Assembly: GCA_041652815.1 (NCBI GenBank)
Contig: JBAZGN010000002.1
Location: forward strand, 238,261 to 302,260
From: Candidatus Omnitrophota bacterium
GTDB lineage: Bacteria > Omnitrophota > Gorgyraeia > Duberdicusellales > 4484-171
DNA length: 64,000 bases
Reading direction: 5' to 3'
Position 1 is the first letter of the stretch. Each line of letters opens with the position of its first letter. Positions 1,483 to 61,200 of this stretch are shown one piece after another. Under the pieces are notes generated by a model. It saw nothing but the letters and a program-made list of their open reading frames with translations, ran no database searches and had not been told where the DNA came from. A program made the translations under genes and the position numbers.

Positions 1483-1484
1483 CA

Positions 1485-1520
1485 TGTTGATAAGTTGATA
1501 GGTTTAAACTTATCAACATA
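1485..1520. terminator. Perfect palindrome ATGTTGATAAG-N13-CTTATCAACAT after lolD; hairpin or factor-binding dyad
   Basis: The 11-bp arms are exact reverse complements. It is followed by an AT-rich stretch and the ilvE RBS. Confidence 0.4.
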
Positions 1521-1558
1521 ATAACCTAATAACATAAAAACCATCAGGAGGTTTTATT

Positions 1559-2434
1559 ATGAAGATTTATTTAAATGGAAAATTAGTTGATAAAGATGAA
1601 GCTAAAATTTCTGTCTTTGACCACGGTTTTTTATATGGAGACGGAGTTTTTGAAGGAATACGCGCTTACGATTGCCTGGTGTTTAAGCTAAAAGAACACA
1701 TCGACAGGCTTTTTGAGTCAGCGCATTCCATAATGCTGCCGGTTAAGTTAAGCAGGGAAAAAATGACGGAGGCGGTTGTTGAAACATTGAAAGCAAATAA
1801 CCTTAAAGACGCTTATATACGTTTGATTATTTCTCGCGGCGAAGGCGACTTGGGGCTGGATCCTAGAAAATGTAAAGGAAACGCAACAATAGTTATCATC
1901 ACGGACAAGGTAGCCCTTTATCCTGGGAAGCTTTATCGTGAAGGAATGGCAATTATTACTGTTCCTACTATCAGAAATATACCGGAAGCATTAAACCCGC
2001 AGATAAAATCTCTTAATTATTTGAATAATATTCTGGCTAAGATAGAAGCTGTTAATTGCGGGTATGAAGAGGCTCTTATGCTGGATCATCTTGGCTACAT
2101 TGCCGAGTGTACCGGCGATAATATTTTCGTAGTTGAGAAGGAAGAGCTTTATACTCCGCCCCAATGCATGGGTACATTACGAGGTATCACCCGTGATGCG
2201 GTTTTGGCTATCGCAAGAAAATTAAAAATTCCTACCCATGAGCACGTTTTAACGCGCCATGAATTGTATAATAGCCAGGAATGTTTCTTAACCGGTACAG
2301 CCGCAGAAATTATTCCTGTTGTTAAAGTCGATGGAAGAGCAATCGGCGAAGCAAAGCCGGGGAAAGTTACTAAATTTCTAATGCAGGAGTTTAAGAAACT
2401 GACAAAAACAGACGGAGTGAAGTATAGTTTATAA
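1559..2434 (+). CDS. ilvE: Branched-chain amino acid aminotransferase (class IV PLP aminotransferase)
   Basis: The N-terminus MKIYLNGKLV...FDHGFLYGDGVFEGIRAY is class IV typical, and the ~290 aa length fits. There is a strong RBS CAGGAGG. Confidence 0.8.
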   Translation: MKIYLNGKLVDKDEAKISVFDHGFLYGDGVFEGIRAYDCLVFKLKEHIDRLFESAHSIMLPVKLSREKMTEAVVETLKANNLKDAYIRLIISRGEGDLGLDPRKCKGNATIVIITDKVALYPGKLYREGMAIITVPTIRNIPEALNPQIKSLNYLNNILAKIEAVNCGYEEALMLDHLGYIAECTGDNIFVVEKEELYTPPQCMGTLRGITRDAVLAIARKLKIPTHEHVLTRHELYNSQECFLTGTAAEIIPVVKVDGRAIGEAKPGKVTKFLMQEFKKLTKTDGVKYSL

Positions 2435-2524
2435 GTTGTTATGTTGTTAAGTTATTAGGTTTATAGATTGTAATATATAACCTGTCAACCTATCAACATA
2501 TTAACCTATCAACCCAATAACCCA

Positions 2525-3010
2525 ATGCTTTGCGATATTTGCCACAAAAATATAGCTACTGTTCATCTTACAGAAATTATCAACGATAAAGTTGTTGAAA
2601 TGCACATCTGCCAGAATTGTACAAAAACAAAAACCCAGGAACTTAAGGAAAATTTAACTATACCGGAACTTTTAACTGGATTGATAAATACAACTGAAGC
2701 TCACAAAAAAGAAGCCCCGCTTAAATGCGAGTTTTGCGGTTTAACTTACGTAGATTTTAAGAAAAAAGCACGGTTTGGCTGTGGTAGGTGCTATTCGGTT
2801 TTCAAAGTGCAGATTCTGCCGCTGCTTAAAAAAATACATGGTTCACTTACTTACGCGGGAAAATCCGCAATTGATATGCAGAAAGATTCTTTTTCAAATA
2901 GCGTGAAGGAATTAAAAATAAGGCTTGAACGCGCTATAAAATTAGAAGAATACGAAGAAGCTGCGCGCCTACGGGACGAACTTAAAAAGCTGGAGCAAAA
3001 ACCCATCTAG
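2525..3010 (+). CDS. mcsA: McsA-like activator of protein arginine kinase (two CxxC zinc-finger pairs + C-terminal UVR motif)
   Basis: CDICH...HICQNC and CEFCG...CGRC pairs are present. The C-terminal EEYEEAARLRDELKKLE UvrB/C motif is present. It lies immediately upstream of mcsB-clpC. Confidence 0.7.
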   Translation: MLCDICHKNIATVHLTEIINDKVVEMHICQNCTKTKTQELKENLTIPELLTGLINTTEAHKKEAPLKCEFCGLTYVDFKKKARFGCGRCYSVFKVQILPLLKKIHGSLTYAGKSAIDMQKDSFSNSVKELKIRLERAIKLEEYEEAARLRDELKKLEQKPI

Positions 3011-3105
3011 ATGCTTGATGCTCGCTACTTGATGCTTGTAGAAAAAATAACGAGTATCTAGCATCTAGGATCGAGCATCAATGTTGAAGTTTTGGTATAA
3101 AAAAC

Positions 3106-4151: not shown

Positions 4152-4246
4152 ATAGAAGCGGATATCCGCGGATCTAAACGCGGATAAACGCAAGCTGATT
4201 GGCGTGCGTAAATCCGCGTAGATATCCGCGGCAATCCGCTTCTACT
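4152..4246. repeat. Intergenic dyad-symmetric element, family R1 (CGCGGAT words), copy A
   Basis: It is ~88% identical over ~90 bp to 59556..59645. It contains the ATCCGCGGAT palindrome and a nested AAACGCGGATAAACGC / GCGTAAATCCGCG inverted repeat. Confidence 0.8.
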
Positions 4247-4268: not shown

Positions 4269-6701
4269 ATGTTTAACAGATTTACAGAGAGAGCAAGAAA
4301 AGTTTTGGTTCTTGCGAAAGAAGAAGCAAGGCGTTTTAATCATGATTACATAGGCACAGAGCATATACTACTTGGTTTGGTAAGAGAAGGCGAGGGGGTG
4401 GCTTGTGCTGTTTTGCAGAATTTAGGTATTGATTTGGAGCGCTTGAGAATCGAAATAGAAAAACTGATTTCTCCCGGAAGCTCGGCTTCTGTTTTGGGAG
4501 AAATACCGTTTACACCGCGCGCCAAAAAAGCCTTAGAGCTTGCTGCTGAGGAAGCGCATAATCTGGGGCACAATTACATAGGCACAGAGCATATTCTCCT
4601 TGGCTTAATAAGGGAAGGCGAGGGGTTAGCTTCACAGGTCCTTTTTTCGTTAGGTGTTGATTTACGAAAAATAAGGGAAGAAATAGCAGCTCTTCTTGGA
4701 GGAGGCCAGTCTTATCAGGGGGCTGCCCCGCAGGCTACATCCAAAACCCCGGCATTAGATTCTTTCGGAAGAGATTTAACCAAACTTGCAAAAGAAGGCA
4801 AATTAGACCCGGTTATCGGCCGTAAAGGCGAGATAGAAAGAGTTATCCAGGTGCTTTCACGCAGGACCAAAAACAATCCTGTTCTTTTGGGTGAAGCTGG
4901 CGTAGGCAAAACTGCAATCGTAGAAGGTTTAGCTCAAAGCATAACACTTGGTGAGGTACCGGAGATTCTTCGGAATAAAAGAATAGTTGTGCTTGATTTG
5001 GCGCTGATGATAGCCGGAACAAAATACCGCGGGCAGTTTGAAGAAAGAATTAAAGCAGTAATGGAGGAAATAAAACGTTCCAAAGACGTTATTATTTTCA
5101 TAGATGAGTTGCATACTCTCGTTGGCGCAGGCGCAGCTGAAGGAGCGATAGATGCTTCAAATATTTTAAAGCCGTCCTTGTCCAGAGGGGAAATTCAGTG
5201 TATAGGTGCAACCACCCTTGATGAATACAGAAAATATATAGAAAAAGATGCGGCGCTCGAGAGGAGGTTTCAGCCGATAATCGTTGAGCCGAATTCTGTT
5301 GAAGAAACAGTTGAAATATTAAAAGGCCTACGCGATAAATACGAAGCGCACCACAGAGTTAAATTTTCTAATGAAGCAGTTGAGGCAGCATCAAAGCTTT
5401 CTGACAGGTATGTATCCGGAAGATTTTTGCCGGATAAAGCAGTTGATTTAATTGATGAGGCGGGTGCCCGCGCGCGTTTGGCGGTTTTGACGGCTCCGAA
5501 AGAGATAAAAGACCTTGAAGACAAATTAAATGGAATAGACCGCGAAAAAGAAGCTCTTATAAAACAGCAGGATTTTGAAGCAGCGGCACGGCTTCGTGAC
5601 GAAGAAAAAAAGCTACGGCTGCAGCTGGATTCTTTAAGAAAGGATTGGAGCAAAAAAAGAGACCAGATTATTCCGACTGTAAGCGAAGAAGATATTGCGC
5701 ATTTAGTTGCGCAAATTACAGGTATACCCATCTACAGGCTTGAAGAAAGAGAATCGGAAAAGCTTCTTAAGATTGAAGAAAAATTAACCGAAACAGTCAT
5801 CGGCCAGACAGAAGCCCTCCAGGCTATAGCGCGTTCTATCAGGCGTGCAAGGGCAGGGATAAAAGAGCCGCGCCGGCCAATTGGCTCATTTATGTTTCTC
5901 GGGCCAACCGGAGTAGGCAAGACTTTGCTTGCGCGGGCTCTTGCTGAACTTATGTTCGGTGATGAAGAGGCATTGCTTCAAATTGATATGAGCGAGTATA
6001 TGGAGAAATTCAATGTTTCAAGGCTTATAGGAGCCCCCCCCGGCTATGTAGGTTACGAGGAGGGAGGCCAGCTTACCGAACGTGTTAGAAGAAGGCCGTA
6101 TTCCGTAATTTTGCTTGATGAAATAGAAAAAGCCCATCCAGATGTGTTTAATTTACTTTTACAGATATTGGAAGAAGGCAGGCTTACCGACAGCTTCGCA
6201 AGAAAGATTGATTTTAGAAATACCATTTTGATAATGACTTCTAATGTTGGCGCTGAAATAATCAGGCAGCGTGGTTCCTTGGGTTTTAAGCCTCTGACAG
6301 AAGATATAGGCTACGAAGATATGAAGAACATGCTTCTTGATGAAGTAAAAAAAGCGTTTAAACCGGAATTTTTGAATAGGCTAGATGAGGTTATAGTTTT
6401 TAGGCCTCTTGGTAAAGAAGACCTTGGCAAGATAGTTGACATTGAGCTTTCCTACGTGAACAGCCGCCTGAAAGACCAGGGTGTTGAGGTCCAACTTTCC
6501 AATGATGCCAAGGATTTTTTTGTAGAGAAAGGTTTTGATCCGGTGTTTGGTGCGCGCCCTTTAAAGAGAGTTATACAAAGGTTTTTAGAGGATCCGTTGG
6601 CGGAAGATATAATAAAAGGAGAATTTACAGAGAGATTGAAAAAAGAAAAACCAGTGAAAATAAAAGTAACTAGAAAAGGCGAAGAATTGAAGTTTGAATG
6701 A
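4269..6701 (+). CDS. clpC: ATP-dependent Clp protease ATP-binding subunit ClpC
   Basis: Tandem Clp-N repeats, two AAA+ modules (GEAGVGKT and GPTGVGKT Walker A) and a UVR-like coiled coil between the AAA modules. The length is 810 aa. Confidence 0.9.
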
Positions 6702-9222: not shown

Positions 9223-9407
9223 AATTAGAGTATAATTATGTATTATTTTAATCTTTATTATCCCGCCTCGCCTGTATATGTGGTAAATTTTTCAAGAAAA
9301 ATTTACCACAAGCTCGGCGGGATCAATTCGCACTATCATTTTTTCTGCGCCCTGCCACCGAAGGTGGCGAGGCTTGAAAAAAATGATGTGCTCATTGAGG
9401 AGGTGTA
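9223..9407. repeat. Intergenic dyad element, family R6 (GTGGTAAATTT...AAATTTACCAC), copy A
   Basis: The inverted repeat GTGGTAAATTTTTCAAGAAAAATTTACCAC is followed by a GC hairpin CCACCGAAGGTGG. It is related to 57586..57742. Confidence 0.6.
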
Positions 9408-10115
9408 ATGGCTAACAATCTTTCCAACATAAAAAAGTATTTCTTGGAAATGAGAGTAGGTGCTTTTTTTATCGGCGCGCTAATTTTGCTTTTGATTACG
9501 CTCCTCTCGATAAGAGAAACCACTTTCTGGAAGGGGACCCGTCTTCTAAAAGTAAGATTTAATTTTGCAGAAGGGCTTCGCCCGGCTTCTCCCGTACGGT
9601 TTTGCGGTGTAGATGTTGGTGAGGTTAAGTATGTTGAAGTCAAACAAGATGATGATTTACAGCCGTATGTATTTGTCTATGTAAAGGTAAGTACAGATTC
9701 ACGCATACCGAAGAATTCTTATTTTTTTATAAACTCTTTAAGTTTATTCGGAGAAAAATACCTTGAAATAGTGCCTCCCGTGAAGCCGGAAGGATTTTTA
9801 ACCGGAGGAGAAGTGGTTGAAGGAATCTCTCCAACGCCACTTTTTAACGTAGTTACCAATTTTAACAAGACCATGGAAGAGGTGAATGCTTTCGTGAAAG
9901 ATGGAAAGCTTAAGGAATCATTTGCAAACACAATTACTAATGTAGAAAAGATAAGTGCCGATGTGCGGCAATTAATAGAAGACGTGAGAAACAAAAAAGG
10001 CACTCTCGGCAAATTTTTTTACGATGATTCTCTCTATACTAAGACGGAAGAATTCATTGACGAGTTAAAAGAGAATCCCTGGAAATTACTTTATAAGCCA
10101 AAAGATGCCAAATAG
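9408..10115 (+). CDS. mlaD: MCE-domain protein MlaD-like
   Basis: A single N-terminal TM is followed by an MCE domain. There is a strong RBS GAGGAGG. It is the third gene of the mlaEFD-like set. Confidence 0.7.
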   Translation: MANNLSNIKKYFLEMRVGAFFIGALILLLITLLSIRETTFWKGTRLLKVRFNFAEGLRPASPVRFCGVDVGEVKYVEVKQDDDLQPYVFVYVKVSTDSRIPKNSYFFINSLSLFGEKYLEIVPPVKPEGFLTGGEVVEGISPTPLFNVVTNFNKTMEEVNAFVKDGKLKESFANTITNVEKISADVRQLIEDVRNKKGTLGKFFYDDSLYTKTEEFIDELKENPWKLLYKPKDAK

Positions 10116-10230
10116 CATAGCGCATAGCGCAAAGCGCGAAGCGTGAGAAACAGGAAGCAGAAGTCTTTATTTTCTATGTTCGAAATCTGCTATTTGTTTT
10201 CTTCATTTTTTCCGCTATGCGCCATGCTCT
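10116..10230. repeat. Intergenic dyad element (CATAGCGC / GCGCTATG words), singleton in this window
   Basis: CATAGCGCATAGCGCAAAGCGCG lies at the 5' end. The 3' end is CCGCTATGCGCCATGCTCTATGCGCCATGCG, in the reverse-complement sense. Confidence 0.6.
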
Positions 10231-11580
10231 ATGCGCCATGCGATTATTATGTTTTATTGCTCCAATTGCGGATATAAATCGGTTAAGTGGTTAGGCAAAT
10301 GCCCTCTTTGCGAAGGATGGGAAACTTTTTTCGAAGAAAAGGAAGAGCTGCGTGATGGGGAAATTATTAAAGAAAAGCAAGCGCCTCGCCTTGTAAAAGA
10401 TATAGAAGGAAAAGATTATAACAGGATTGTAACAGGAATAGATGAGTTTGACCGCATAATCGGCGGAGGGCTCGTAAATGGAGAGATAATCCTTATAGGC
10501 GGAGAGCCGGGAGTCGGCAAATCTACCCTTCTTTTAGAAATTTCATCAGCCTTGGCGGCTAAAGCAAAAACTCTCTATGTGAGCGCCGAAGAATCTCCCC
10601 ATCAAGTATCCTTACGCGCAAACAGGCTTAATACCCAGGATAGCAATCTTTACATTCTGGGAGAAGATAATCTTGAAACTGTCTTCGGCTACATAAAAGA
10701 GCATGGTTTTAAATTCATAGTTATAGATTCGATACAAGTTGTCTGGAACGCGCGCTCCGAAGGGCCAAAAGGAAGCGTTTCGCAGCTTAAAGGCTCTGCC
10801 GATTATCTTACTCAGATTGCCAAGTCTTTGAATGTAGTTATTTTTGTCGTCGGCCATGTTACTAAAGAAGGAGTAATCGCAGGGCCTAAACTACTTGAGC
10901 ATATTGTTGACTGCGTTCTTTATTTTGAAGGGGAAATCCTTTCCAATTACAGGATTCTGCGCGCAGTTAAAAATCGATTCGGCCCTACCGGAGATATCGC
11001 GGTATTTGAAATGTTATCCAGCGGCCTTAAAGAAGTCAAAAAGACTACGGATCTTTTTCTTCCCCATAAAGATGAAGCTATTTCCGGAAGCTCCGTCGTC
11101 TGCGTTATAGAGGGGTTACGGCCTTTACTTATTGAGTTACAGTCCCTTGTGAGCAAGGCCAGTTTCGGGGTTGTTAGAAGGCGAAGCCTTGGGTTTGATT
11201 TTAACAGATTTTCTTTACTTATTGCCATAATCGAAAAGAGGCTTAAAATGTCTCTTTCGAGCGAAGATGTGTTTTTAAATGTCGCAGGAGGCCTTAAGAT
11301 AAATGATCCCGCTGCTGACCTGGGAGCAGTAATTGCAATAATTTCAAGTTACAAAGAAAAAGAGCCGCCTCTAAGCAGCGCATTTATTGCCGAGGTAGGC
11401 CTGGCGGGAGAGCTTCGACGTGTCAGCAATATAAATCTAAGGCTTAAAGAAATAGGAAGAGCGGGGTTTGCGCGCTGTTTTATCCCGGAAAGTAATTTAA
11501 AAGATGTCGACGCCAAGTTTAAATTTAAAATAGAAGGGTTTTCTTCTTTAAAAGAAGTTATAGAAAAAATCTGGAGGTAG
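10231..11580 (+). CDS. radA: DNA repair protein RadA/Sms
   Basis: N-terminal C4 zinc finger CSNCGY...CPLCEGW, RecA-like Walker A GEPGVGKST and a Lon-protease-like C-terminal domain. ATG 10249 is an alternative start. Confidence 0.9.
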   Translation: MRHAIIMFYCSNCGYKSVKWLGKCPLCEGWETFFEEKEELRDGEIIKEKQAPRLVKDIEGKDYNRIVTGIDEFDRIIGGGLVNGEIILIGGEPGVGKSTLLLEISSALAAKAKTLYVSAEESPHQVSLRANRLNTQDSNLYILGEDNLETVFGYIKEHGFKFIVIDSIQVVWNARSEGPKGSVSQLKGSADYLTQIAKSLNVVIFVVGHVTKEGVIAGPKLLEHIVDCVLYFEGEILSNYRILRAVKNRFGPTGDIAVFEMLSSGLKEVKKTTDLFLPHKDEAISGSSVVCVIEGLRPLLIELQSLVSKASFGVVRRRSLGFDFNRFSLLIAIIEKRLKMSLSSEDVFLNVAGGLKINDPAADLGAVIAIISSYKEKEPPLSSAFIAEVGLAGELRRVSNINLRLKEIGRAGFARCFIPESNLKDVDAKFKFKIEGFSSLKEVIEKIWR

Positions 11581-12560: not shown

Positions 12561-12767
12561 AGAGATAATAGAGCCCATAAATCTTAGGTTACTCGCCTGT
12601 CACGGCAGGCAGGTTACGTAGGCCACAGGCTTTCAGCCTGCTGGGTAGGTTACGAAGGTTACATAAATAAAGTGATTTTAATGTAACTTCCGTAACTTTC
12701 GTAACTTAATTCTTCCGCCGAAGGCGAAAGAATTAACGTAACCTCCGTAACATTTATTGTAACGAAT
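12561..12767. repeat. Intergenic dyad element, family R2 (GGTTACG / CGTAACC words), copy A
   Basis: It has multiple GGTTACG words, then AATGTAACTTCCGTAACTTTCGTAACTT, with the embedded GC hairpin CCGCCGAAGGCG. It is related to 44449..44593. Confidence 0.7.
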
Positions 12768-13439
12768 ATGCCATCTAATGTCGGTGCTGTAATAGTTTGC
12801 GCAGGCAAGGGTAAGCGTTTAGGTGCTGATAAAGCTGCAATTAAATTAGAAGGTAAACCCCTCTTTTATCATACCTACAAGCTTTTTAAGGACATAAAGG
12901 CGATAAAACAAATCGTTATTGTCCTAAGAAAAAAGAATTTTACCCTTGCGCAAAAACTTATCAAAGACAAAAGAGTTTCTTTAGCTGAAGGAGGCGTGCG
13001 CCGTCAGGATTCTGTTTTTGCAGGGCTATCCCGATTGGATAAAAATATAGGCTATGTGCTTATTCACGACGGCGCGAGGCCTTTTACGCCAAGAGCGGTA
13101 ATAGTTGAAATGCTAAAGAATGTTAAAAAATACCCCGCAGTTATTTGCGCAGTTAAATCCAGAGACACATTAAAAGGCATTCGTGGTAATTTTGTAAAAA
13201 ATACTCTTAATAGAAATGATATAGCGATGGTCCAGACTCCCCAGGCTTTTAAGAAGAGCCTGTTGTTGGATGCATATCAAAAATTTAACCACAGGAATAC
13301 TTTTGACGATGCCGAGCTTTTTGAGTTTATGAAGAAAAAAGTAAGAATAGTAAATGGAAGCCACCGTAATATAAAAATTACCTATCCGCAGGATATGGTT
13401 TTGGCAAAAGCACTATTGAAGACGAAAGGTACCACGTAA
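12768..13439 (+). CDS. ispD: 2-C-methyl-D-erythritol 4-phosphate cytidylyltransferase
   Basis: The N-terminal AVIVCAGKGKRLG nucleotide-binding motif is present. The ~220 aa length fits, and it is followed by ispF. Confidence 0.8.
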   Translation: MPSNVGAVIVCAGKGKRLGADKAAIKLEGKPLFYHTYKLFKDIKAIKQIVIVLRKKNFTLAQKLIKDKRVSLAEGGVRRQDSVFAGLSRLDKNIGYVLIHDGARPFTPRAVIVEMLKNVKKYPAVICAVKSRDTLKGIRGNFVKNTLNRNDIAMVQTPQAFKKSLLLDAYQKFNHRNTFDDAELFEFMKKKVRIVNGSHRNIKITYPQDMVLAKALLKTKGTT

Positions 13440-13523
13440 CAGGTATCACGTAGCACGTCCTGACGTATGTAATTTTTTAAAGACGTGATACTTGATACGT
13501 GTTACCTGATACACTAAAGAATT
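13440..13523. repeat. Intergenic dyad element (ATCACGT / ACGTGAT words)
   Basis: The repeated words ATCACGTAGCACGTCCTGACGT ... GACGTGATACTTGATACGTG lie between ispD and ispF. Confidence 0.5.
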
Positions 13524-22071: not shown

Positions 22072-22177
22072 ACCTAATATTTACACCGCTAAAACGCAAA
22101 ATGCCGCGAAATCACAAAGTTTTGCGGTTTTGTTTTTGCGTCTTTGCGGATTTTAGCGGTTTTGCGGTGTTCACACA
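22072..22177. repeat. Intergenic dyad element, family R3 (ACACCGC...GCAAAA / TTTTGCGG...GCGGTGTT), copy A
   Basis: It starts with TACACCGCTAAAACGCAAAA and ends with TTTTGCGGTGTTCAC. It is related to 26256..26410. Confidence 0.65.
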
Positions 22178-26255: not shown

Positions 26256-26410
26256 ATATTTAAAGTGTTAAAAACTTTTTCTACACCGCAAACCCGCTAA
26301 AGACCGCAAAAAATGCAAAAGGAGAAATATCGATATACTGTAAAAATACAATGGAAATGCAATTTATTTTTTGCGATTTTGGTCTCCTTTGCGCCTTCGC
26401 GGTGTTTTCT
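26256..26410. repeat. Intergenic dyad element, family R3, copy B
   Basis: It runs TACACCGCAAACCCGCTAAAGACCGCAAAAAATGCAAAA ... TTTTTGCGATTTTGG ... GCGCCTTCGCGGTGTT. Confidence 0.6.
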
Positions 26411-27121: not shown

Positions 27122-27332
27122 TCTAAGGTTTTTTATGCAATTTGCAAACCTTATTGATGCACAGATGAGATATTCGTCTAACGGTTGCCTGCCCGCCGCA
27201 GGCGGGCGAGTTCGTTACGGTTGCGTTAAGCGCAGGGCGTCATTAAGACGCAACCGATAAACGATAGATGAAACGAGTCGCACAACCGATGGACGATTTA
27301 CGATATACTAAATCTGTGCCATAAACCTCACA
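27122..27332. repeat. Intergenic dyad element, family R4 (CAACCGAT / CGTTAC words + GC hairpin GCCTGCCCGCCGCAGGCGGGCGAG), copy A
   Basis: It shares the CAACCGATGGACG...ACGATATAC 3' module with 32084..32297. The GC hairpin module is present in reverse-complement orientation there. Confidence 0.7.
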
Positions 27333-32083: not shown

Positions 32084-32297
32084 AATACACAGACGATCAC
32101 AGATTGGAAAGCAGATTATCACAGATAGACTTGCGTTAATCGGTTGCGGTTACGCCGCTTGTATCGGTTGCGTTAATCGTCAATCGTCTTTTTGGACGCA
32201 ACCGAATAACGAACGATGAGATAAGCTCGCCCGCCAAAGGCGGGCAGGCAACCGATGGACGGAAGACGATATACCAAGTGTATTAAGGAGGATAAAG
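32084..32297. repeat. Intergenic dyad element, family R4, copy B
   Basis: It contains CTCGCCCGCCAAAGGCGGGCAGGC (the reverse complement of the copy A hairpin) and CAACCGATGGACGGAAGACGATATACC. Confidence 0.7.
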
Positions 32298-32915: not shown

Positions 32916-33599
32916 ATGAGCATTAAAAACAGATTGAAGAGATGGTTTAAGCTCAGATTTTTCGTAACTTATCCTTTCGGTTTATTTGTTTTATTTTTCT
33001 GCAGCCCCACTACGGAATCTTTTAACTCCGGCATTTGGTTTGTGATTGCGGGTTTAATTATGCGGCTTTGGGCAAATGGTTATGCTATCAAGACGCATAA
33101 ACTTACAACTTCAGGGCCTTATTCTATTGTGCGTAACCCTTTATATCTTGGCACGATGCTGATTGCGATAGGTTTTATGATACTGTTAGATACTTCTTAT
33201 GTGGGATTAGTTTTTATAATAATTATGGCAGCAGTATATTACCGTACTATCAGATACGAAGAGCGGGCATTGACGGAAAAGCACGGAAAAATTTATCTTG
33301 ATTATAAAGATAAAGTGCCGATGATATTGCCTACTTTTTTCAGGTATAAAAAAGGTGAAAAGTGGCCGTTTAGCTTTAAACGCATAATTGAAAATAAAGA
33401 ATATAAACTTTTTATATGGGTAATTAATATTACGATAATCTTTAGATTAAAAGGGTACTTCTTAATAGACCATGAAAGCATAGATGCAAAGAAATGGTTT
33501 CTCATTGCTTTATTTATAATTTTAGCCGCTATAGACATCGGCGGAGAAATCTTTAAGTGGAATAAGAAAAGAGCGAAGAGAATGGGGAACACACAATAG
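32916..33599 (+). CDS. Isoprenylcysteine carboxyl methyltransferase/phospholipid methyltransferase-family membrane protein
   Basis: The family motif GPYSIVRNPLYLG...YEERAL is present, along with multi-TM topology and a C-terminal extension. Confidence 0.55.
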   Translation: MSIKNRLKRWFKLRFFVTYPFGLFVLFFCSPTTESFNSGIWFVIAGLIMRLWANGYAIKTHKLTTSGPYSIVRNPLYLGTMLIAIGFMILLDTSYVGLVFIIIMAAVYYRTIRYEERALTEKHGKIYLDYKDKVPMILPTFFRYKKGEKWPFSFKRIIENKEYKLFIWVINITIIFRLKGYFLIDHESIDAKKWFLIALFIILAAIDIGGEIFKWNKKRAKRMGNTQ

Positions 33600-33679
33600 A
33601 TGCCCGATACTAGATTCTAGATACTCGTCGTTTTTATCACGGGCATCTAGCATCAAGTATCTAGAATCTATTTAGTAAT
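33600..33679. repeat. Intergenic dyad element, family R5, copy C (inverted)
   Basis: It runs GATACTAGATTCTAGATACTCGTCGTTTTT...CATCTAGCATCAAGTATCTAGAATCTA. Confidence 0.55.
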
Positions 33680-34870: not shown

Positions 34871-35438
34871 AATAATTTTGGCTTCAAAATCAAAAGCAAG
34901 AAAAGATTTGCTTAAAGGAATAGGGCTTAAGTTTTCTGTTTATGTTTCCGGGGCCAAAGAAACCCATAGCTTAAGCAAAGGCTGCCATCATCTTGTTGTA
35001 AAAAACGCACTCATAAAAGCGAGAGATGCGGCAAAAAGGTTTAACGCAGGCGTAGTTATAGCCGCAGATACGGTTGTTTTAGCAAATAATAAAATAATTG
35101 GAAAACCCAAGAATTTGAATGAGGCATTTAAAACGCTTAAAACTATTTCAAAGAAACCGCAATGGGTTTATACGGGACTTGCCGTAATTGACATAGATAA
35201 AAATAAAATATTTACGGATTACGAAAAAACAAAGATTTATATGCTAGCTTTAAGCGATAGGCAGATAAGAAATTATTTTAAAAAAGTTTCTCCTTTGGAT
35301 AAGGCCGGAAGTTTTGATATCCAGGGGCTGGGGGGCATATTTATTGACCGTATTGAAGGTTGTTTTTATAATGTAGTAGGGCTACCGCTTGCTAAATTAG
35401 CAAAGCTGCTTAAAAAGGCAGGAATTGAGATATTCTGA
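34863..35438 (+). CDS. maf: Maf-family nucleoside triphosphate pyrophosphatase
   Basis: The N-terminus is MRKIILASKSKAR. It has an ATGCGTAA overlap with the upstream gene. Confidence 0.8.
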   Translation: MRKIILASKSKARKDLLKGIGLKFSVYVSGAKETHSLSKGCHHLVVKNALIKARDAAKRFNAGVVIAADTVVLANNKIIGKPKNLNEAFKTLKTISKKPQWVYTGLAVIDIDKNKIFTDYEKTKIYMLALSDRQIRNYFKKVSPLDKAGSFDIQGLGGIFIDRIEGCFYNVVGLPLAKLAKLLKKAGIEIF

Positions 35439-35543
35439 TAGAGAACAGATAGCAGAGTACAGAGAACAGAGAAAAAATAAGAGAGTTTGTTCTGTAATCT
35501 GTACTCTGTTTTCTGTACTCTTTCCGAGCGTAGCGAGGAAAAC
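35439..35543. repeat. Intergenic dyad element (ACAGAG / CTCTGT words)
   Basis: GAGAACAGATAGCAGAGTACAGAGAACAGAG lies opposite CTGTAATCTGTACTCTGTTTTCTGTACTCT. Confidence 0.55.
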
Positions 35544-44448: not shown

Positions 44449-44593
44449 AAGGTTACGAATGTTACGCAGGTTACGAATGTTACGCAGGTCACACTTAATC
44501 ACGATGGTTCAATGTAACTTTCGTAACTTCCCGTAACCTGCCTCGCCTTGCTCGGCAAGGCGGGCATCCGTAACCCTCGTAACCCAAATAACA
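44449..44593. repeat. Intergenic dyad element, family R2, copy B
   Basis: It runs GGTTACGAATGTTACGCAGGTTACGAATGTTACGCAGG ... AATGTAACTTTCGTAACTTCCCGTAACC, with the GC hairpin CCTCGCCTTGCTCGGCAAGGCGGG. Confidence 0.7.
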
Positions 44594-46357: not shown

Positions 46358-46443
46358 TATTACGCAGATGATCACAGTTAAAATCATCTGTGATCATCTG
46401 TTTTGCTATCTGCGATCATCTGCGTATAAAAAAGGAAAATAAA
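46358..46443. repeat. Intergenic dyad element (CAGATGATCACA words)
   Basis: GCAGATGATCACAG...ATCATCTGTGATCATCTG...CTGCGATCATCTGCG lies between feoB and the regulator gene. It may be the operator for the DtxR-like repressor. Confidence 0.5.
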
Positions 46444-47144: not shown

Positions 47145-47282
47145 AATTAAACAGGGGAGGTCGTGAAACGACCTGAGAGTTCCCGTAAACGGGATTACCC
47201 TTTGAACCTGTTCCGCTTTAGGCGGAACCACCTAAATATCTGTATGGGGTGGTGGTCTGGATAATGCCAGCGTAGGGAGTAG
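47145..47282 (+). promoter_or_regulatory. TPP (THI-box) riboswitch
   Basis: The GGGGAGG...CTGAGAG J3-2, ACCCTTTGAACCTG and CTGGATAATGCCAGCGTAGGGAG core are present. It lies upstream of thi4-thi4-thiM-thiE. Confidence 0.7.
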
Positions 47283-47297
47283 GTGTAATCATAATTA

Positions 47298-47330
47298 ATC
47301 CTTGTGTTGCTGGCACAAGGATTTTTCATT
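47298..47330 (+). terminator. Intrinsic terminator (riboswitch expression platform) ATCCTTGTG-TTGCTGG-CACAAGGAT + TTTTT
   Basis: It is a 9-bp stem plus a U-tract immediately 3' of the aptamer and 5' of the thi4 RBS. Confidence 0.6.
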
Positions 47331-54176: not shown

Positions 54177-54292
54177 AATAAAAATACGGATTTTATATAT
54201 TGATTGTTAACAGGTAAAAATACAAAAATTTACACCATTGGACACATCAAGCCACAAATAATTACGTACCGGCAGGCAGCCTTGTTTTTGGC

Positions 54293-54320
54293 TTGACAAA
54301 CATATCGGCAGGAGTATATT
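54293..54320 (+). promoter_or_regulatory. Sigma70-like promoter TTGACA-N16-TATATT driving a noncoding transcript
   Basis: It has a consensus -35 element and a good -10 element. There is no ORF downstream before the terminator. Confidence 0.4.
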
Positions 54321-54327
54321 AAAGGCA

Positions 54328-54497
54328 CAATCAGGCAATCGTCCCGAGTTTGAAGGGCTAAATCCAGGACGTTCCGCCTTCGCCCTTTGTTAGGGTAGTA
54401 GAAACTCTGACGGGCTACGGCGGACCAGCCCAGATAGATAGATTAAGGTGGCTGGAAAAACAATTAAAACCTTTGCATAAAGAGCAAAGGTTTTTTT
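54328..54497 (+). ncRNA. Candidate structured small RNA / unknown riboswitch-like leader (~170 nt) bounded by promoter and intrinsic terminator
   Basis: There is no ATG in the transcript. The GGGCT/AGCCC and TCCGCC/GGCGGA pairings are present. The terminator CCTTTGC-ATAAAGA-GCAAAGG + T7 lies at 54469..54497. Confidence 0.35.
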
Positions 54498-54516
54498 ATT
54501 TTATAGGAATTGAAAT

Positions 54517-55803: not shown

Positions 55804-56013
55804 ATGCATACAGGTAAAATCAAAAAACTAGTCAGGGAAAGAGGTTTTGGCTTTATTAGTGACACTGACGGAAGCGAAGTGTTTTTTCACAAAAGCAGCT
55901 TGCTTGAGGCTCAGTTTGATTCTTTGAACGAAAACCAGGAAGTCGAATTTGAAACCCGTAAAGGCCCAAAAGGCCCAAGTGCTGTCAGCGTCCGTGTAAA
56001 AGCCCAACAATAG
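55804..56013 (+). CDS. Cold-shock protein (CspA family)
   Basis: The RNP1-like RGFGFI and the beta-barrel core are present. The length is 70 aa. The RBS AAAAAGGAGG precedes it. Confidence 0.8.
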   Translation: MHTGKIKKLVRERGFGFISDTDGSEVFFHKSSLLEAQFDSLNENQEVEFETRKGPKGPSAVSVRVKAQQ

Positions 56014-57585: not shown

Positions 57586-57742
57586 GTAATTGCTAGAAGC
57601 AGATTGCCGTGGATATTCGTTTCTATATTTACCCCTCGCGCCTATATATCGTGTAAATTTTCTCGGCCTACGGCCAGGAAAATTTACACGAAGCGCTTCG
57701 GGGTTAATTTTCCGCCTCAGGCGGAAAATTAAGGAGGTCCAT
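57586..57742. repeat. Intergenic dyad element, family R6, copy B
   Basis: It runs CGTGTAAATTTTCTCGGCCTACGGCCAGGAAAATTTACACG, then GCGCTTCGGGG and the CCGCCTCAGGCGG hairpin. Confidence 0.6.
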
Positions 57743-58178: not shown

Positions 58179-59555
58179 ATGAAATTTATCCCCCCTTTTA
58201 TTAATAGTTTCAGGGTAAAAGTAACTCTTACTTTAATCTTCTCATTGTTGTTTATTGCGGGATTGGATAATTTTATTCTTTACGAATATAACTTACGTCT
58301 GCAATTCAAAAATTTACAGGATAAATTAAAAACTATCGCCAGTACGGCAGCCATAGATATCGATGCGGATTTAATTGGGAAAGTCCCATTGAATAGGGAA
58401 GGAATAAACAGCCAAGCCTATGAAACAATAGCCGAACAGCTTAACAAAATTAAAAAAGCAAACCCGCAATTAAAATATATTTATACTCTTGCCAAAACCG
58501 GCACGCCCGGCATTGCGCAATTTATCGTTGATCCTTCGCCTTATATAGGCACGCGTACATCTTTGCCGGGAGATAAATACGATGCCTACCGTTTTCCGGA
58601 AATGCTCGAGGCTTACGGGGGCCCTACCGTAGACAAAAATCTTGTAATTGATGAATGGGGAGCAACGCTCTCGGCTTATGCGCCGATTTATGGTAAAAAT
58701 TTAAAAGCTGTTGCGATTTTGGGGGTGGATATAGATGCCAATGAAGTTTATACGCTGCAAAAGGCTGCCCGGTTAAAAACGCTTTTTATTCTAATACTTG
58801 TAATAGCTGTTTCAATATTGCTTGGAGCTTGGATTTCAATGGATGTTACGCGGCCGGTTCAGAATCTTGTTGAAGGCACGCGTAGGATTGCGGCCGGAAA
58901 TTTGGATTATAAAGTTGAGATTAAAAGTAAAGACGAGATAGGAGAACTAGCCGAGGCATTTAACGCTATGGCTGGGAATTTAGCAGCTTCGCGGGAAAAA
59001 CTGCACGATTATTTCTATCGTGTAGTCCAGGCTATGGTAAGGAGCCTTGAAGCAAAAGACCACTATACGCGAGGCCATTCCGACAGGGTAAGTGAATATT
59101 CCGCAGATATAGCAAAAGCTATTGGGTTTTCCGATGAAAAAGTAGAAATGCTTAAAAAGGCAGCGCAGCTGCATGATATAGGAAAATTAGGAATTCATGA
59201 GGATATTTTGAATAAAAAAAGCGCGCTTTCAGAGAATGAATGGGATTTAATTCATCAGCATCCTGCTGTAGGAGAAGAAATCTTAAAGCCCATTTTTCTG
59301 GACGAAGAAATGCTTGCCGTTGTAAGGAGCCACCACGAGCGGTATGATGGAAAAGGATATCCCGATGGCTTAAAGGCAGAGCAGATTAATATTTTTGCTC
59401 AAATTGTTTGTGTCGCTGATAGTTATGATGCAATGACATCATCCCGTTCCTATCGGGCTGCTTTAAGTAAAGAGGAAGCAATAGAGCGCCTTAAAAAAGA
59501 TTGCGGCGCTCAATTTAACCCGGAAATTGTAGAGGCATTTATAAAAGTATTATAG
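58179..59555 (+). CDS. HD-GYP phosphodiesterase with periplasmic sensor domain, TM and HAMP
   Basis: A signal/TM, a periplasmic domain, a second TM and HAMP are present. The HD-GYP motifs are HDIGKLGI and HHERYDGKGYP. Confidence 0.75.
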   Translation: MKFIPPFINSFRVKVTLTLIFSLLFIAGLDNFILYEYNLRLQFKNLQDKLKTIASTAAIDIDADLIGKVPLNREGINSQAYETIAEQLNKIKKANPQLKYIYTLAKTGTPGIAQFIVDPSPYIGTRTSLPGDKYDAYRFPEMLEAYGGPTVDKNLVIDEWGATLSAYAPIYGKNLKAVAILGVDIDANEVYTLQKAARLKTLFILILVIAVSILLGAWISMDVTRPVQNLVEGTRRIAAGNLDYKVEIKSKDEIGELAEAFNAMAGNLAASREKLHDYFYRVVQAMVRSLEAKDHYTRGHSDRVSEYSADIAKAIGFSDEKVEMLKKAAQLHDIGKLGIHEDILNKKSALSENEWDLIHQHPAVGEEILKPIFLDEEMLAVVRSHHERYDGKGYPDGLKAEQINIFAQIVCVADSYDAMTSSRSYRAALSKEEAIERLKKDCGAQFNPEIVEAFIKVL

Positions 59556-59645
59556 TAGCGGATTACCGCGGAACTAAACGCGGATAAACGCATGCTAATT
59601 CGCTTGCGTAAATCCGCGTAGGTATCCGCGGCAATCTGCTTCTAT
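59556..59645. repeat. Intergenic dyad element, family R1, copy B
   Basis: It is ~88% identical to 4152..4246. Confidence 0.8.
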
Positions 59646-59660
59646 AGCAAGGAAAAACAA

Positions 59661-61064
59661 ATGGCGGTTTCGATACAATTTTGTGGAGGAGCCAAGACTG
59701 TTACAGGCTCAGTCCATCTTATTACTACAAAACATTCCAAGGTTATCCTTGACTGCGGGCTGTTTCAGGGAAAGCGTGACGAATATTTTGCCATAAACTC
59801 GCAATTTCCGTTTAACCCGCAGAATCTTGATGCTTGCGTGTTATCACACGCGCACATAGACCATTCCGGCAATATCCCTACACTGGTAAAAAAGGGTTTT
59901 AGGGCCTCAGTTTATTGTACGCCTGTGACAAGAGATTTATGCCGCTATATGCTTCCTGACAGCGGCCACATACAGGAAGAAGATATAAAATACGTTAATA
60001 AAATAAATAGACGCCGTGGCTTGCCGCCGCGCGCGCCTCTTTATACGAAAGAGGATGCCGAAAAGGCGCTTAAGTATTTTCGTGCTCTTGATTATGACCA
60101 TACTATGCGAATCGCTGACGATGTAGATTTAAATTTTTATGACGGCGGCCATATTCTAGGTTCAACCATAACGGTATTGGATATTATGACAGGTTCAAGG
60201 CAGCCTATAAGAATCGCCTATGCTGTGGATTTAGGCAGGGAGGGTATGCCTCTTTTGGATGATCCGGAAGTCCCGCCAGGCATTAACTATTTAATTATGG
60301 AAAGTACCTATGGTGGAAGGCGCCACGAGACATTGGAAGAAGCGGAAATTAAACTTGCCAATACCATTAACAAAACAGTGCAGCGCGGCGGGAAGGTTAT
60401 TATTCCTTCTTTTGCTCTTGAGCGCACGCAACTGATTGTTTACTTTATAAGTGAATTAATAAAAAGAAAAATGGTGCCGAAAATTCCCATATACGTTGAT
60501 GGGCCTTTGGCGGTTAGTCTTACCCAGGTATTTAGAGAAAACTGGAAATATTTTGATGAAGCAACAAAAAAATCTTTTCGCGAGCACAAAGACCCTTTTA
60601 GCCATGATAATATTGAATATATAAGTAAAGTGGATGATTCCAAAAAACTTCACGATATAGATAAGCCGATAATAATTATATCTGCATCCGGCATGTGCGA
60701 AAACGGCCGCATCCAGCATCATTTGAAAAATAACATTGAAAACCCTAAAAATGCAATTATTGTTGTTGGGTTTATGGCGAAGGATACTTTGGGCAGGCGT
60801 ATAGTTGAGAAACAGGCTACCGTGCGTATTTTTGGCCGCCCCTATGATTTAAGGGCAGAGGTGGTTGTGATAAACGCTTTTAGCTCTCACGCTGACTGTG
60901 ACGGGTTGGTTGAATATGCCGGCAAATGCCGTGGTAATTTAAGGCAGATATTTTTAGTTCACGGAGAAGCTGACCAGGCAGAAATTTTGAAGAATAATAT
61001 CAGGAAGAAGTTCCGTTTAAAGGTAAGCATCCCGGAGAAAGGTGAAGCAGTTTATTTAAGATAA
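59661..61064 (+). CDS. MBL-fold beta-CASP family ribonuclease (RNase J/CPSF-like)
   Basis: The MBL motif HAHIDHSG is present, along with a beta-CASP region and a C-terminal RMMBL-like segment SSHAD. The length is 467 aa. Confidence 0.7.
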   Translation: MAVSIQFCGGAKTVTGSVHLITTKHSKVILDCGLFQGKRDEYFAINSQFPFNPQNLDACVLSHAHIDHSGNIPTLVKKGFRASVYCTPVTRDLCRYMLPDSGHIQEEDIKYVNKINRRRGLPPRAPLYTKEDAEKALKYFRALDYDHTMRIADDVDLNFYDGGHILGSTITVLDIMTGSRQPIRIAYAVDLGREGMPLLDDPEVPPGINYLIMESTYGGRRHETLEEAEIKLANTINKTVQRGGKVIIPSFALERTQLIVYFISELIKRKMVPKIPIYVDGPLAVSLTQVFRENWKYFDEATKKSFREHKDPFSHDNIEYISKVDDSKKLHDIDKPIIIISASGMCENGRIQHHLKNNIENPKNAIIVVGFMAKDTLGRRIVEKQATVRIFGRPYDLRAEVVVINAFSSHADCDGLVEYAGKCRGNLRQIFLVHGEADQAEILKNNIRKKFRLKVSIPEKGEAVYLR

Positions 61065-61074
61065 ATTATTTCTT

Positions 61075-61200
61075 GCGCACGGGAGCCCCGCAGGGGCGAC
61101 GTCCCGAACCGCCACGGTGGTGCAAGGCACCACCAGCCCGCGGGCTACCGAAAGCGAGCCCGCGGTATCTGGCAACGGAATAAGGCAGCCGCTTTACTAA
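61075..61200. repeat. GC-rich (visibly >65% GC) multi-hairpin island in an AT-rich genome
   Basis: The hairpins are CCCCGCAGGGG and GGTGGTGCAAGGCACCACC. The GCCCGCGGGC palindrome and GAGCCCGCGG are also present. Confidence 0.5.

Follow-up and report, generated by a model that had tools for sequence, protein, structure and literature searches.

The window examined in this study, a 64,000-nt stretch of a Candidatus Omnitrophota MAG from an uncultivated bacterium, contains 16 word-dyad elements and 2 two-hairpin elements, which fill about half (18) of its ~31 spacers of at least 44 nt. The preliminary description of this DNA, according to which almost every spacer is built in this manner, was therefore overstated. 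The distribution of the elements is uneven, with 14 of the 17 spacers before 36.4 kb being occupied and only those at 44449, 46358, 57632, and 59553 beyond that point. Spacers devoid of elements hold strong promoter-like sites, a TPP riboswitch, a structured leader, and small genes. An automatic criterion was positive for 11 of the 30 window spacers of 60-400 nt (37%) and for 16 of 421 (4%) spacers in loci from other phyla, an approximately 9-fold enrichment (Fisher p = 1e-7). All eleven words named previously were found, and the claim of families with 2-3 copies in the window was substantiated for five families by BLASTN and for two or three more by common words or termini. The GTAAATTT spacer does harbor an element, as had been proposed, but one of the two-hairpin kind rather than a word dyad. 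The closest homologues of ClpC, McsB, and beta-CASP of the window all belong to Omnitrophota MAGs. The elements are as follows, unstranded unless a strand is given:

1484..1545: GTTGATA(A/G)G element, opening with a perfect hairpin of 13 bp (1484-1519) and continuing as AAC-rich word copies
2435..2524: GTTGTTAT / TCAACMTA element with an 8-nt period and ~4 units per arm
3007..3083: GATGCT / CTAGATGC element, the first word of which contains the stop codon TAG
4153..4244: 92-nt member of the CGCGGAT family, bounded by TAGAAGCGGAT...ATCCGCTTCTA
9260..9403, plus strand: two-hairpin element ending at a ribosome-binding site (SD)
10113..10248: CATAGCGC element with a 7-nt period, abutting the real RadA start at 10249
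12583..12767: GGTTACG element enclosing three GC-rich hairpins, one of them at 12592-12612
13436..13510: ATCACGT element (7-nt period) that overlaps the IspD stop codon
22083..22172: ACCGCAAA / TTTGCGG element, its termini being ACACCGC...GCGGTGT
26283..26405: another ACCGCAAA element, sharing the termini of 22083..22172, between two minus-strand genes
27159..27319: mosaic element in a divergent intergenic region, with outer CACAGAT arms and inner CAACCGAT arms
32085..32283: mosaic element of CAGAYNATCACAGAT words and a CAACCGAT hairpin
33595..33672: CTAGAT / GATAC element related to 3007-3083
35437..35529: ACAGAG / CTCTGT hairpin, its right arm concealed by an over-long ORF call
44451..44586: GGTTACG element with a three-way junction (MFE -62 kcal/mol, z = -7.6)
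46361..46426: CAGATGATCACA element with termini TACGCAGATG...CATCTGCGTA, masked by a GTG start call
57594..57625: internally deleted CGCGGAT-family remnant, TAGAAGCAGAT...TTTCTA, with a terminal 11-mer match at 57594
57632..57737, plus strand: second copy of the two-hairpin element, ending at a ribosome-binding site (SD) ahead of a gene whose real start is 57743
59553..59644: CGCGGAT-family element of 92 nt (z = -8.3), the first three bases of which are the HD-GYP stop codon

The 16 word elements are imperfect hairpins of 65-200 nt, in which each arm consists of 2-5 tandem copies of a family-specific 6-9-nt word recurring with a period of 7-12 nt, and all 16 were predicted by RNA folding to form one long imperfect hairpin. 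The RNA hairpins of ten spacers reached z = -2.8 to -8.3 relative to dinucleotide shuffles. Both direct and inverted copies of the words were confirmed, with 5-mer self-matches of either type in excess (z up to 12; the 95th percentile of coding controls was ~3-3.5). At least 10 families with unrelated words are present in the window, and inverted termini are not confined to the CGCGGAT family (ACACCGC/GCGGTGT, TACGCAGATG/CATCTGCGTA). The embedded GC-rich hairpins reported earlier were recovered in five elements, with mini-hairpins at 9352-9371 in 9260..9403, at 27189-27210 in 27159..27319, at 32226-32247 in 32085..32283 (in the opposite arm and orientation to that at 27189), and at 44542-44563 in the right arm of 44451..44586. 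The two-hairpin element 9260..9403 is arranged as a GC stem plus a GTAAATTTT stem, followed by TCAATTCGCAC, a hairpin, GTGCTCATTGA, and GGAGG. The elements are small, within the MITE size limit of <~300 bp, and non-coding, none containing an ORF of 60 aa or more, and the Rfam 15 covariance models gave zero matches at gathering score across the whole window. A CRISPR array, which requires identical 24-48-nt repeats with regular unique spacers, does not describe them, as had been stated; the repeated units are of 6-9 nt, contiguous or 2-5 nt apart, and in both orientations. The observation that longest-ORF starts run into elements was true at four genes, where over-long starts at 10231, 35487, 46390, and 57590 have likely real counterparts at 10249, 35544, 46444, and 57743, respectively; the protein from start 35544 matches the Cation_efflux family from residue 29.

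Our right-arm pattern scan of metagenomes returned 31 loci; full CGCGGAT elements surrounded by unrelated DNA were present in ~20 low-GC loci, 13 of which originate from one metagenome. Sixteen copies, including 4153..4244 (MFE -58 kcal/mol, z = -7.9; 89% identity to 59553-59644), were aligned end to end over 87-93 nt, each with different flanks, and all share 11-bp inverted termini (TAGAAGCGGAT/ATCCGCTTCTA) at which the similarity ends exactly. Other words also recur (CACAGAT in 15 spacers, GGTTACG in 14), and BLASTN clustered the spacers into families across genomes, at non-orthologous sites. In the 16-copy alignment, the right arm of which is biased by the pattern used in the search, the words were better conserved than the short spacers between them. 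This conservation might be read as the signature of binding sites for regulators, nucleoid or partition-like proteins, helically phased by the 7-12-nt period, and the 10-12-nt CGCGGAT periods and A/T-run spacers of the ACCGCAAA elements do resemble phasing; however, the same conservation is equally expected if only paired segments are constrained, and a period of 7-9 nt does not keep in step with the helix. Moreover, the arrays lie mostly between co-directional genes without a nearby promoter, the elements are dispensable in close relatives, and at least 10 unrelated words in 64 kb would require many binding proteins, all of which renders a binding-site function very improbable.

Among five syntenic genomes, 9 gene junctions vary in state and 5 tight junctions are invariant, with orthologous spacers being filled, empty, or occupied by another family. 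The element at 1484..1545 (fold z = -4.2), which shows 72-78% identity to 2435-2524, L084:9413, and L087:4759, faces an empty orthologous spacer of 21 nt in L085 and L086. The spacer of 2435..2524, an element that begins at the stop codon, has an orthologous copy in L084, is empty (9 nt) in L085, and holds other families in L086 and L087. Similarly, the spacer of 3007..3083 (76% identity to 33600-33679 by BLASTN) is empty in L084 (21 nt), and the position of 4153..4244 carries only a small hairpin in L084, L086, and L087. The element at 10113..10248 is absent from L084, L085, and L086, and its L087 orthologue retains the same MFE despite 33 substitutions. Where the window has 12583..12767, a family member of 44451-44586, the spacer in L084, L086, and L087 is only 36-39 nt long and contains a small hairpin, and L085 has an unrelated MITE. 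The IspD-IspF spacer measures 84 nt in the window and 4 nt (AATT) in L085 and L086. An empty 49-nt spacer stands in L085, L086, and L087 where the window has 9260..9403, relatives of which precede other genes in L084, L085, L001, L111, L120, and at window position 57632; this second copy shows 83% identity over 126 nt to L084:8373-8536, and a different subfamily is present at the orthologous L120 site. BLASTN linked the element at 46361..46426 with L085:6660-6734 and with the left part of 32085. At a tenth varying junction, from HD-GYP to beta-CASP, the window has 105 nt and L120-L122 have 11-13 nt; L119 (95% aa identity) carries a CACGAAT-family element there instead of a CGCGGAT one. Deleting the 92-nt 59553..59644 from the window leaves a 13-nt spacer colinear with the empty L120 and L121 sites. 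The inserted units are complete, and they occupy short AT-rich intervals that separate a stop codon from the following SD, with some elements overlapping the stop codon or replacing the last codons of the upstream gene; some sites resemble segment replacement between conserved flanks rather than simple insertion. The same gaps are hit repeatedly in different lineages, and turnover is rapid.

Slippage could multiply a word and intrastrand template switching copy arm onto arm, so that hairpins would grow locally in neutral spacers, with no movement at all and with similar words in different spacers being convergent or ancestral. Several features speak for such events. The left arm of the GGTTACG element 44451..44586 contains a perfect 18-nt tandem duplication (44452-44487), word number differs among related copies, as in CACGAAT copies with 3 or 5 words per arm, and two CATAGCGC copies in L087 are alike in their outer words and unlike in their centers. 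One-armed arrays occur (e.g., GGTTACG in L086 and L087), and LysS of L084, L086, and L087 possesses a C-terminal tail translated from word arrays; for one-armed arrays and word arrays in gene 3' ends, local slippage is as good an explanation as mobility. MFE was preserved far better in diverged copies than in copies mutated at random (p = 0.007, 0.02, 0.09), and hairpin stability persists at 25% sequence divergence, as palindrome-correcting template switching predicts. Against a purely local origin, 16 copies of the 92-nt unit align fully, loop included, in unrelated flanks, a whole unit in the window corresponds to a 13-nt spacer in relatives without local precursor sequence, and the same families appear at non-orthologous sites of several genomes. 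As the only process, local growth fails and is an unlikely account of the elements, although slippage and template switching very likely modify them after insertion, and the arms do alter in place by slippage. The elements and small GC-rich hairpin modules also nest in one another, generating mosaics. A small module, CTGCC-stem-loop-GGCGAG, had 8 matches in 315 kb compared with 1 for a mirror-pattern control, with 7 of the 8 lying inside elements of three different families, and a GC-rich hairpin of a type other than CTGCC...GGCGAG is present in the L102 CGCGGAT copy and missing from the other copies.

Taken as a whole, we consider it probable (roughly 0.7) that the spacers have been filled by many families of small non-autonomous mobile palindromes, similar to MITEs or REPINs. 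They represent a known kind of selfish element that is here unusually dense and unusually built, and no description of such elements for the phylum Omnitrophota was found in the literature. The proposal of a genome-wide REP/BIME- or MITE-like feature accordingly stands, given the multi-copy dispersed families with sharp inverted termini and insertion polymorphism. Like MITEs, the elements are small and non-coding, with terminal inverted repeats, dispersed copies, and whole-unit presence or absence; a cognate autonomous element with a transposase was not found in the window, the fetched loci, or viral contigs. Pfam revealed no transposase, RAYT, or other candidate mobilizing gene in the 64-kb window, in agreement with the earlier remark that the elements are not IS-like, and the fetched comparison loci likewise contain no transposase. 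No autonomous copy with matching paired termini was present in the 80 kb-scale fetched loci or viral contigs. An enzyme encoded elsewhere in the genome would move the elements in trans; the unrelated words of at least 10 families would call for many cognate enzymes, or for a single one that reads structure rather than sequence. TA was found at both ends of all 16 CGCGGAT copies, and the one clean empty site (HD-GYP/beta-CASP) fits no duplication better than TA duplication. A 9-bp repeat flanks the L087 insert holding a CGGAT-word hairpin, and a 5-bp repeat accompanies the unrelated MITE of L085. Metagenome assemblies are the source of the window and of every comparison locus, and elements of this type might arise in them through assembly or binning artefacts, yet the same families were found in independent JGI, ENA, and Logan assemblies, with intact flanking genes and normal divergence between orthologous copies, leaving a negligible likelihood for this explanation.

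REP, BIME, and REPIN sequences occur in Enterobacteria and Pseudomonas (REPIN, PMC3116915; REP tags, PMC3733652). The elements of the window resemble them in being extragenic, multi-copy, hairpin-forming, and non-coding, in lying between co-directional operon genes with several families per genome, and, as in BIMEs, in forming mosaics; all 16 word elements are long hairpin doublets, comparable to the ~100-nt hairpin that a REPIN forms from inverted halves. However, their arms are tandem 6-9-nt word arrays, whereas a REP is one 20-40-nt palindrome, and the families per genome are far more numerous, turnover between relatives is much faster than reported, and a RAYT gene was not seen in the 64-kb window. 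Neither the GTAG nor the CGTC tag of REPs was found beside the CGCGGAT hairpin (the base before TAG is A in 13/16 and G in 2/16 copies), and no common end tag is shared across the element families. Correia/NEMIS (Neisseria) and ERIC/IRU (Enterobacteria, Yersinia) are palindromic MITEs, 100-170 bp long and with TA as the insertion site, which are co-transcribed with flanking genes and form RNA hairpins that change mRNA processing and stability; each forms a single family per genome, bounded by long specific inverted termini, and IHF and promoter motifs are present in Correia. The 92-bp CGCGGAT family, with TA at both ends and a location in operon spacers, is close to these, but at least 10 families with word-array arms are present here, and the empty site fits no TA duplication better. 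In cyanobacteria, Elhai et al. (2008, cited in PMC3116915) reportedly described STRR heptamer repeats and small dispersed repeats (SDR). Our elements share with them short heptamer-scale tandem repeats in intergenic DNA but come from another phylum, have unrelated sequences, and assemble their words into two complementary arms of a discrete mobile unit. Very small hairpin elements of ~20-30 nt there enter hairpins already present and lengthen them, and the nested CTGCC...GGCGAG module behaves alike. The BOX repeats of Streptococcus pneumoniae, whose modules of 45-60 nt constitute one family without word-scale arrays, are similarly modular and intergenic, with variable internal tandem modules and predicted stable RNA structure. 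Proliferation of palindromes is also recognized in organelles, namely the yeast mitochondrial GC clusters and the Volvox and Dunaliella organelles (e.g., PMC3017802). There too, AT-rich intergenic DNA is saturated with short, partly GC-rich, mobile-looking, and mutually nested palindromes, although those are eukaryotic organelles under relaxed selection on genome size, whereas the Omnitrophota genome is compact, free-living or host-dependent, with ancestral spacers of 2-50 nt.

The placement of the elements 3' of stop codons and 5' of the next RBS, mostly between co-directional genes, was confirmed and falls inside operons, where they end 5-25 nt from the next SD, and a promoter does not fit. 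Because they are inside operons, without T-tracts, and without room for a promoter, the elements are probably co-transcribed rather than acting as terminators, and this siting suggests that they would be transcribed as stable intercistronic RNA hairpins of -20 to -60 kcal/mol. As REP, Correia, and ERIC elements suggest by analogy, such hairpins would probably affect the decay or processing of mRNA and uncouple neighboring cistrons. A rival reading, in which every site retains its element as a cis-acting RNA structure (terminator, attenuator, RNase III/RNase E site, or mRNA stabilizer), with repetition reflecting recruitment for function instead of selfish spread, draws on the same location between stop codon and ribosome-binding site, on the very stable folds, and on the retention of structure by diverged copies; small covarying hairpins in the "empty" state after McsB and PIN-TRAM likewise suggest that a post-stop hairpin is useful there. 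We nevertheless regard it as quite unlikely. Close relatives with the same operons have no element or an unrelated one, which indicates that no site depends on a particular element, and 27159-27319 sits in a divergent promoter region. Folding of the sense and of the antisense RNA gave equal stability (-602.8 and -594.8 kcal/mol), with G-U pairs (41 and 30) not in excess on the transcribed strand, and owing to this lack of strand asymmetry, nothing shows selection at the RNA level. The terminator alternative raised in the preliminary description was not upheld, as terminator-like sites coincide with no more than 3 of the 16 word elements, in those cases arising from T-rich words; no T-tract was found after the element hairpins, and terminator-like matches were close to chance level. 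The elements thus do not look like intrinsic (Rho-independent) terminators, which consist of a GC-rich stem-loop directly followed by a T-run. Elsewhere in the window, clear terminators are found at 47297-47323 and 54466-54494.

The word-dyad elements, imperfect hairpins of 65-200 nt whose arms consist of tandem 6-9-nt words, lie in the spacers of a window with a G+C content of 38-39% and genes located nearly all on the + strand. The gene content is housekeeping (McsA/McsB/ClpC, MlaEFD, RadA, IspDF, CysS, Tmk, HolB, TsaE/B, Alr, LptFG, NadA, MnmA, NifU/S, MetXW, FeoB, and thiamine genes, along with a P-type ATPase, an HD-GYP protein, and a beta-CASP nuclease); the nearest relatives of the ClpC, McsB, and beta-CASP proteins were Candidatus Omnitrophota MAGs in every case, with a 100% match on a MAG contig of 448,591 nt. 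We counted 16 word-dyad elements and two copies of a separate two-hairpin element among approximately 31 spacers of at least 44 nt, so the preliminary description, which had assigned such elements to almost every spacer, was right about the elements and overstated their saturation. Their distribution was uneven, with 14 of 17 spacers occupied before 36.4 kb and few beyond. A hairpin fold was obtained for all 16 word-dyad elements, and the long imperfect hairpins in 10 folded spacers ranged from -19 to -62 kcal/mol (z = -2.8 to -8.3 relative to dinucleotide shuffles). Each arm contains 2-5 copies of its word, spaced at a period of 7, 8, 9, 10, or 12 nt. Because the words are degenerate, 5-mer pair z-scores were chosen over counting exact k-mers in each spacer; self-matches of 5-mers, both direct and inverted, exceeded shuffles by z-scores reaching 12, compared with approximately 3-3.5 at the 95th percentile of 200 coding controls. 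An automatic criterion was positive in 11/30 window spacers vs 16/421 spacers from 75 loci of other phyla (p = 1e-7). L001, the closest ClpC relative in the genome collection (82% amino acid identity, 46.5% G+C), displayed a like architecture with different words, and the architecture was only sporadic in distant Omnitrophota.

A sliding 6-mer scan was noisy in AT-rich coding DNA, yet it exposed two elements masked by over-long ORFs; such ORF calls masked the elements at 35437-35529 and 46361-46426, plus the end of that at 10113-10248. This agrees with the earlier remark that the elements mislead start-codon calling, as the longest-ORF starts at 10231, 35487, 46390, and 57590 fall within elements, and the real starts were placed at 10249, 35544, 46444, and 57743 based on alignment with relatives, Pfam coverage, and ribosome-binding-site position. 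The elements provide stop codons, take the place of C-terminal tails, and drag ORF starts upstream, with at least four window genes hit by element-related annotation errors, and they may also cause breaks when Omnitrophota are assembled from short reads.

Searching relatives, a check proposed in the preliminary description, revealed that whole elements have been gained or lost between congeners. Synteny with the window is complete across 21 kb in four congeneric loci (L084-L087), whose McsB is 87-91% identical and whose coding DNA is approximately 84-87% identical. The state varied at nine junctions across these five genomes, and five tight junctions (overlaps or ≤34 nt) were invariant. The IspD-IspF spacer measured 84 nt in the window vs 4 nt in L085 and L086, and the RadA-PIN-TRAM spacer was 2 nt except in L087 (148 nt; 18268-18415), where an insert of approximately 146 nt, with the 9-bp repeat AAAATCTGG on both sides, carries a CGGAT-word hairpin within AT-rich flanks, gives RadA a new stop (TAATAG), and restores the downstream ribosome-binding site. 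At the aminotransferase-McsA junction, a GTTGATA element was found in the window and L084, none in L085, AAGGC in L086, and CATAGCGC in L087. The tenth and cleanest case was the HD-GYP/beta-CASP junction, which is 13, 11, and 12 nt long in the comparison loci L120, L121, and L122, 105 nt in the window, including a CGCGGAT element, and 96 nt in L119, where a CACGAAT element is present; the beta-CASP proteins of L119 and the window share 95% identity. Removal of 59553-59644 from the window leaves TAG and a 13-nt spacer colinear with L120. All CGCGGAT copies start and end with TA, but this empty site is better fitted by the absence of a target duplication than by duplication of TA. The site was derived from beta-CASP homologues; no orthologous empty site was found among the metagenome loci with CGCGGAT copies, and L091 was syntenic but too divergent for empty-site comparison. 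These patterns depict a compact genome that tolerates hairpins of 65-200 nt repeatedly colonising operon spacers of 2-50 nt, and presence/absence patterns could serve as metagenome strain markers.

Two further kinds of variable site were observed in the congeners. Upstream of the TTGACA-N17-TATAAT promoter of LysS (L084-L087, approximately 4930-5200), a variable segment bordered by the conserved sequences GCAATAAATA and AATTAATTTGACA contains GGTCTT direct words in L084 and L086, a CACGAAT element in L085, and a GTTGATA element in L087, and looks like a replacement hotspot rather than a simple insertion. The "empty" spacers after McsB (11051-11098) and PIN-TRAM (19397-19445) in L084, L086, and L087 contain a small hairpin that immediately follows the stop codon and covaries among genomes (TCTTTG...CAAAGA, CCTTTG...CAAAGG; GTTCAAC...GTTGAAC) and may be either a conserved stem-loop or a seed or target for larger elements.

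Copy clustering, which had been suggested as a test of whether the families are genuine, showed them to be multi-copy and located at non-orthologous sites. BLASTN tied five window families to non-orthologous copies in spacers of six genomes, and an unbiased 7-mer census recovered CACAGAT in 15 spacers and GGTTACG in 14. In the CGCGGAT family, the window copies at 4153-4244 and 59553-59644 share 89% identity across 92 nt. Scanning metagenomes with a degenerate pattern for the right arm yielded 31 loci; full-length copies occurred in approximately 20 low-GC loci with unrelated flanks, 13 of which came from a single metagenome. The 16 aligned copies are 87-93 nt long, start with TAGAAGCGGAT, and end with ATCCGCTTCTA, with similarity ceasing precisely there; the paired word segments are conserved, and the apical loop and internal-loop spacers are variable. 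Since the search pattern fixed the right arm in this alignment, covariation statistics were dropped and mutation simulation on unbiased pairs was used. Despite 33 substitutions between the orthologous CATAGCGC copies of the window and L087, their folding energies are -52.4 and -51.8 kcal/mol, compared with a mean of -33 kcal/mol under random mutation (p = 0.007); the corresponding values were p = 0.02 for CGCGGAT and p = 0.09 for GTTGATA. This shows that a constraint or correcting process acts on dyad symmetry, at the DNA or RNA level. A strand test (sense vs antisense MFE, G-U counts) for selection acting on the RNA detected no asymmetry, and G-U pairs were unskewed.

The elements also change in place. 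The element at 44451-44586 has a perfect 18-nt tandem duplication in the left arm that is absent from the right, the number of words in each arm of CACGAAT copies is 3 or 5, one-armed word arrays were found, and the CGCGGAT copy of the comparison locus L102 bears, within its left arm, a GC-rich hairpin missing from other copies. Nesting was evident from a CTGCC-[stem-loop]-GGCGAG module, which had eight matches in 315 kb vs one for a mirror-image control pattern, seven of the eight lying within elements of three different families. The elements at 27159-27319 and 32085-32283 are mosaics in which outer arms of the CACAGAT type are combined with CAACCGAT inner arms and with this module; the module occupies opposite arms in the two. 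Together with this visible slippage of arms, the fact that nearly all occupied junctions differ among close relatives makes the group a good natural system for the birth, diversification, and death of REP/MITE-like families. Word arrays were also seen at the coding 3' ends of LysS (approximately 6440-6560 in L084, L086, and L087; 6620-6734 in L085) and McsA (L087, 9860-9900). AAGGCC-type arrays are translated as C-terminal tails, and in L085 LysS a CACAGATGATCACAGAT array stands in place of the tail and supplies the stop codon.

Elements start 0-5 nt past the stop codon, or on it, and end 5-25 nt ahead of the next start. An intrinsic terminator function was rejected, as no T-runs follow the elements and terminator-like matches were at chance level; because there is also no room for a promoter beside them, we infer that they are transcribed inside polycistronic mRNAs as stable intercistronic hairpins. 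REP, Correia, and ERIC hairpins can act as barriers to 3' exonucleases, recruit RNase III or RNase E, or decouple translation, and by analogy the hairpins described here may alter mRNA processing, decay, or translation coupling. If transcribed, hairpins of -20 to -60 kcal/mol are borne by about half of the intra-operon junctions and would be expected to influence how mRNAs differ in stability and how translation is coupled, in an uncultivated phylum where experimental genetics is near nil. No site seems to depend on a given element, given that close relatives lack it or carry an unrelated one. The best reading is selfish spread, the RNA effects being tolerated or, on occasion, useful. Known Rfam families and protein-coding mini-genes were rejected as identities for the elements.

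The initial MITE- or REP-like interpretation held up. The elements resemble MITEs in being small, having inverted termini, occurring in many copies, and being polymorphic for insertion; a cognate autonomous element was sought in the window, the loci, and viral contigs, and none was found, with no paired termini 0.5-3 kb apart in the fetched loci searched. Their closest analogues are REPIN/BIME, Correia and ERIC elements, cyanobacterial heptamer repeats in which small dispersed repeats are nested, and the palindromic repeat blooms of organelle genomes. Unlike REP, they carry no GTAG/CGTC tag, and no RAYT gene was seen in the window. A CRISPR array was rejected, and, consistent with the initial view that they are not IS-like, Pfam annotation of ORFs identified no transposase among the window genes. 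Such elements are unmentioned in searchable Omnitrophota genomics papers.

Recognition of specific terminal repeats by a classical transposase fits poorly with at least 10 unrelated families sharing one architecture and repeatedly reoccupying small spacers. Mobility may instead read structure rather than sequence, with new families derived from local slippage and template switching, although we consider this unlikely. In one version, a process would target existing post-stop hairpins or the stop codon/ribosome-binding-site junction and would insert or swap any hairpin-forming unit there, and new families would arise continually through local slippage and palindrome-correcting template switching, becoming mobile afterwards. 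Such a process would explain the single architecture common to at least 10 unrelated word families, the serial occupation of the same tiny spacers by different families in 85-95%-identical genomes, and the fact that no cognate transposase was seen.

Several other features were identified in the window and its relatives, as follows.

Window 47143-47295: TPP riboswitch upstream of thiazole and thiamine genes (46.6 bits vs the Rfam gathering threshold of 54.3)
Window 47297-47323: clear terminator after the TPP riboswitch
Window 54177-54516: GC-rich structured leader before a radical-SAM/HHH gene, with strong promoter-like site 54293-54320 and terminator 54466-54494
Window, within the 39135-39323 "spacer": DUF2292 protein, 62 aa, missed by the 100-aa ORF filter
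Window, within the 55804-56013 "spacer": cold-shock protein, 69 aa, missed by the 100-aa ORF filter
Window 61074-61190: GC-rich insert of ~115 nt (~70% G+C) with several hairpins, between the beta-CASP and HEAT-repeat genes
Window 9260-9403 and 57632-57737; L084 8373-8536 and 16058-16318; L085 11051-11207; L001 17017-17156; L111; L120 ~2800-2984: two-hairpin element
L085 19288-19454: conventional 128-nt MITE with termini CCCGTTAGAG/CTCTAATGGGG and a 5-bp TTTAC duplication

The TPP riboswitch, which the default Rfam scan did not recover, scored below threshold because 52 nt of extra hairpins occupy the position where P3 of the model has 8 nt. The strongest promoter-like sites (38590, 54293, and 55666) lie in element-free spacers, as do the TPP riboswitch, the structured leader with its terminator, and the genes for the cold-shock and DUF2292 proteins. 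The structured leader had no match in Rfam and may be an undescribed riboswitch or attenuator; a 58-nt stretch of it is 72% identical to 15972-16029, which spans the end of the thymidylate kinase gene and the next spacer. The two-hairpin element has a conserved core, TCAATTCGCAC...GTGCTCATTGA (or TTAATT...AATTAA), and always ends directly at a GGAGG ribosome-binding site, with unrelated genes behind it and polymorphism among congeners; it could be mobile, carrying or abutting the ribosome-binding site, or a conserved 5'-UTR regulator. The L085 MITE is missing at the same site in L084, L086, and L087. The insert at 61074-61190, absent from the 95%-identical L119, is another, GC-rich kind of inserted element.
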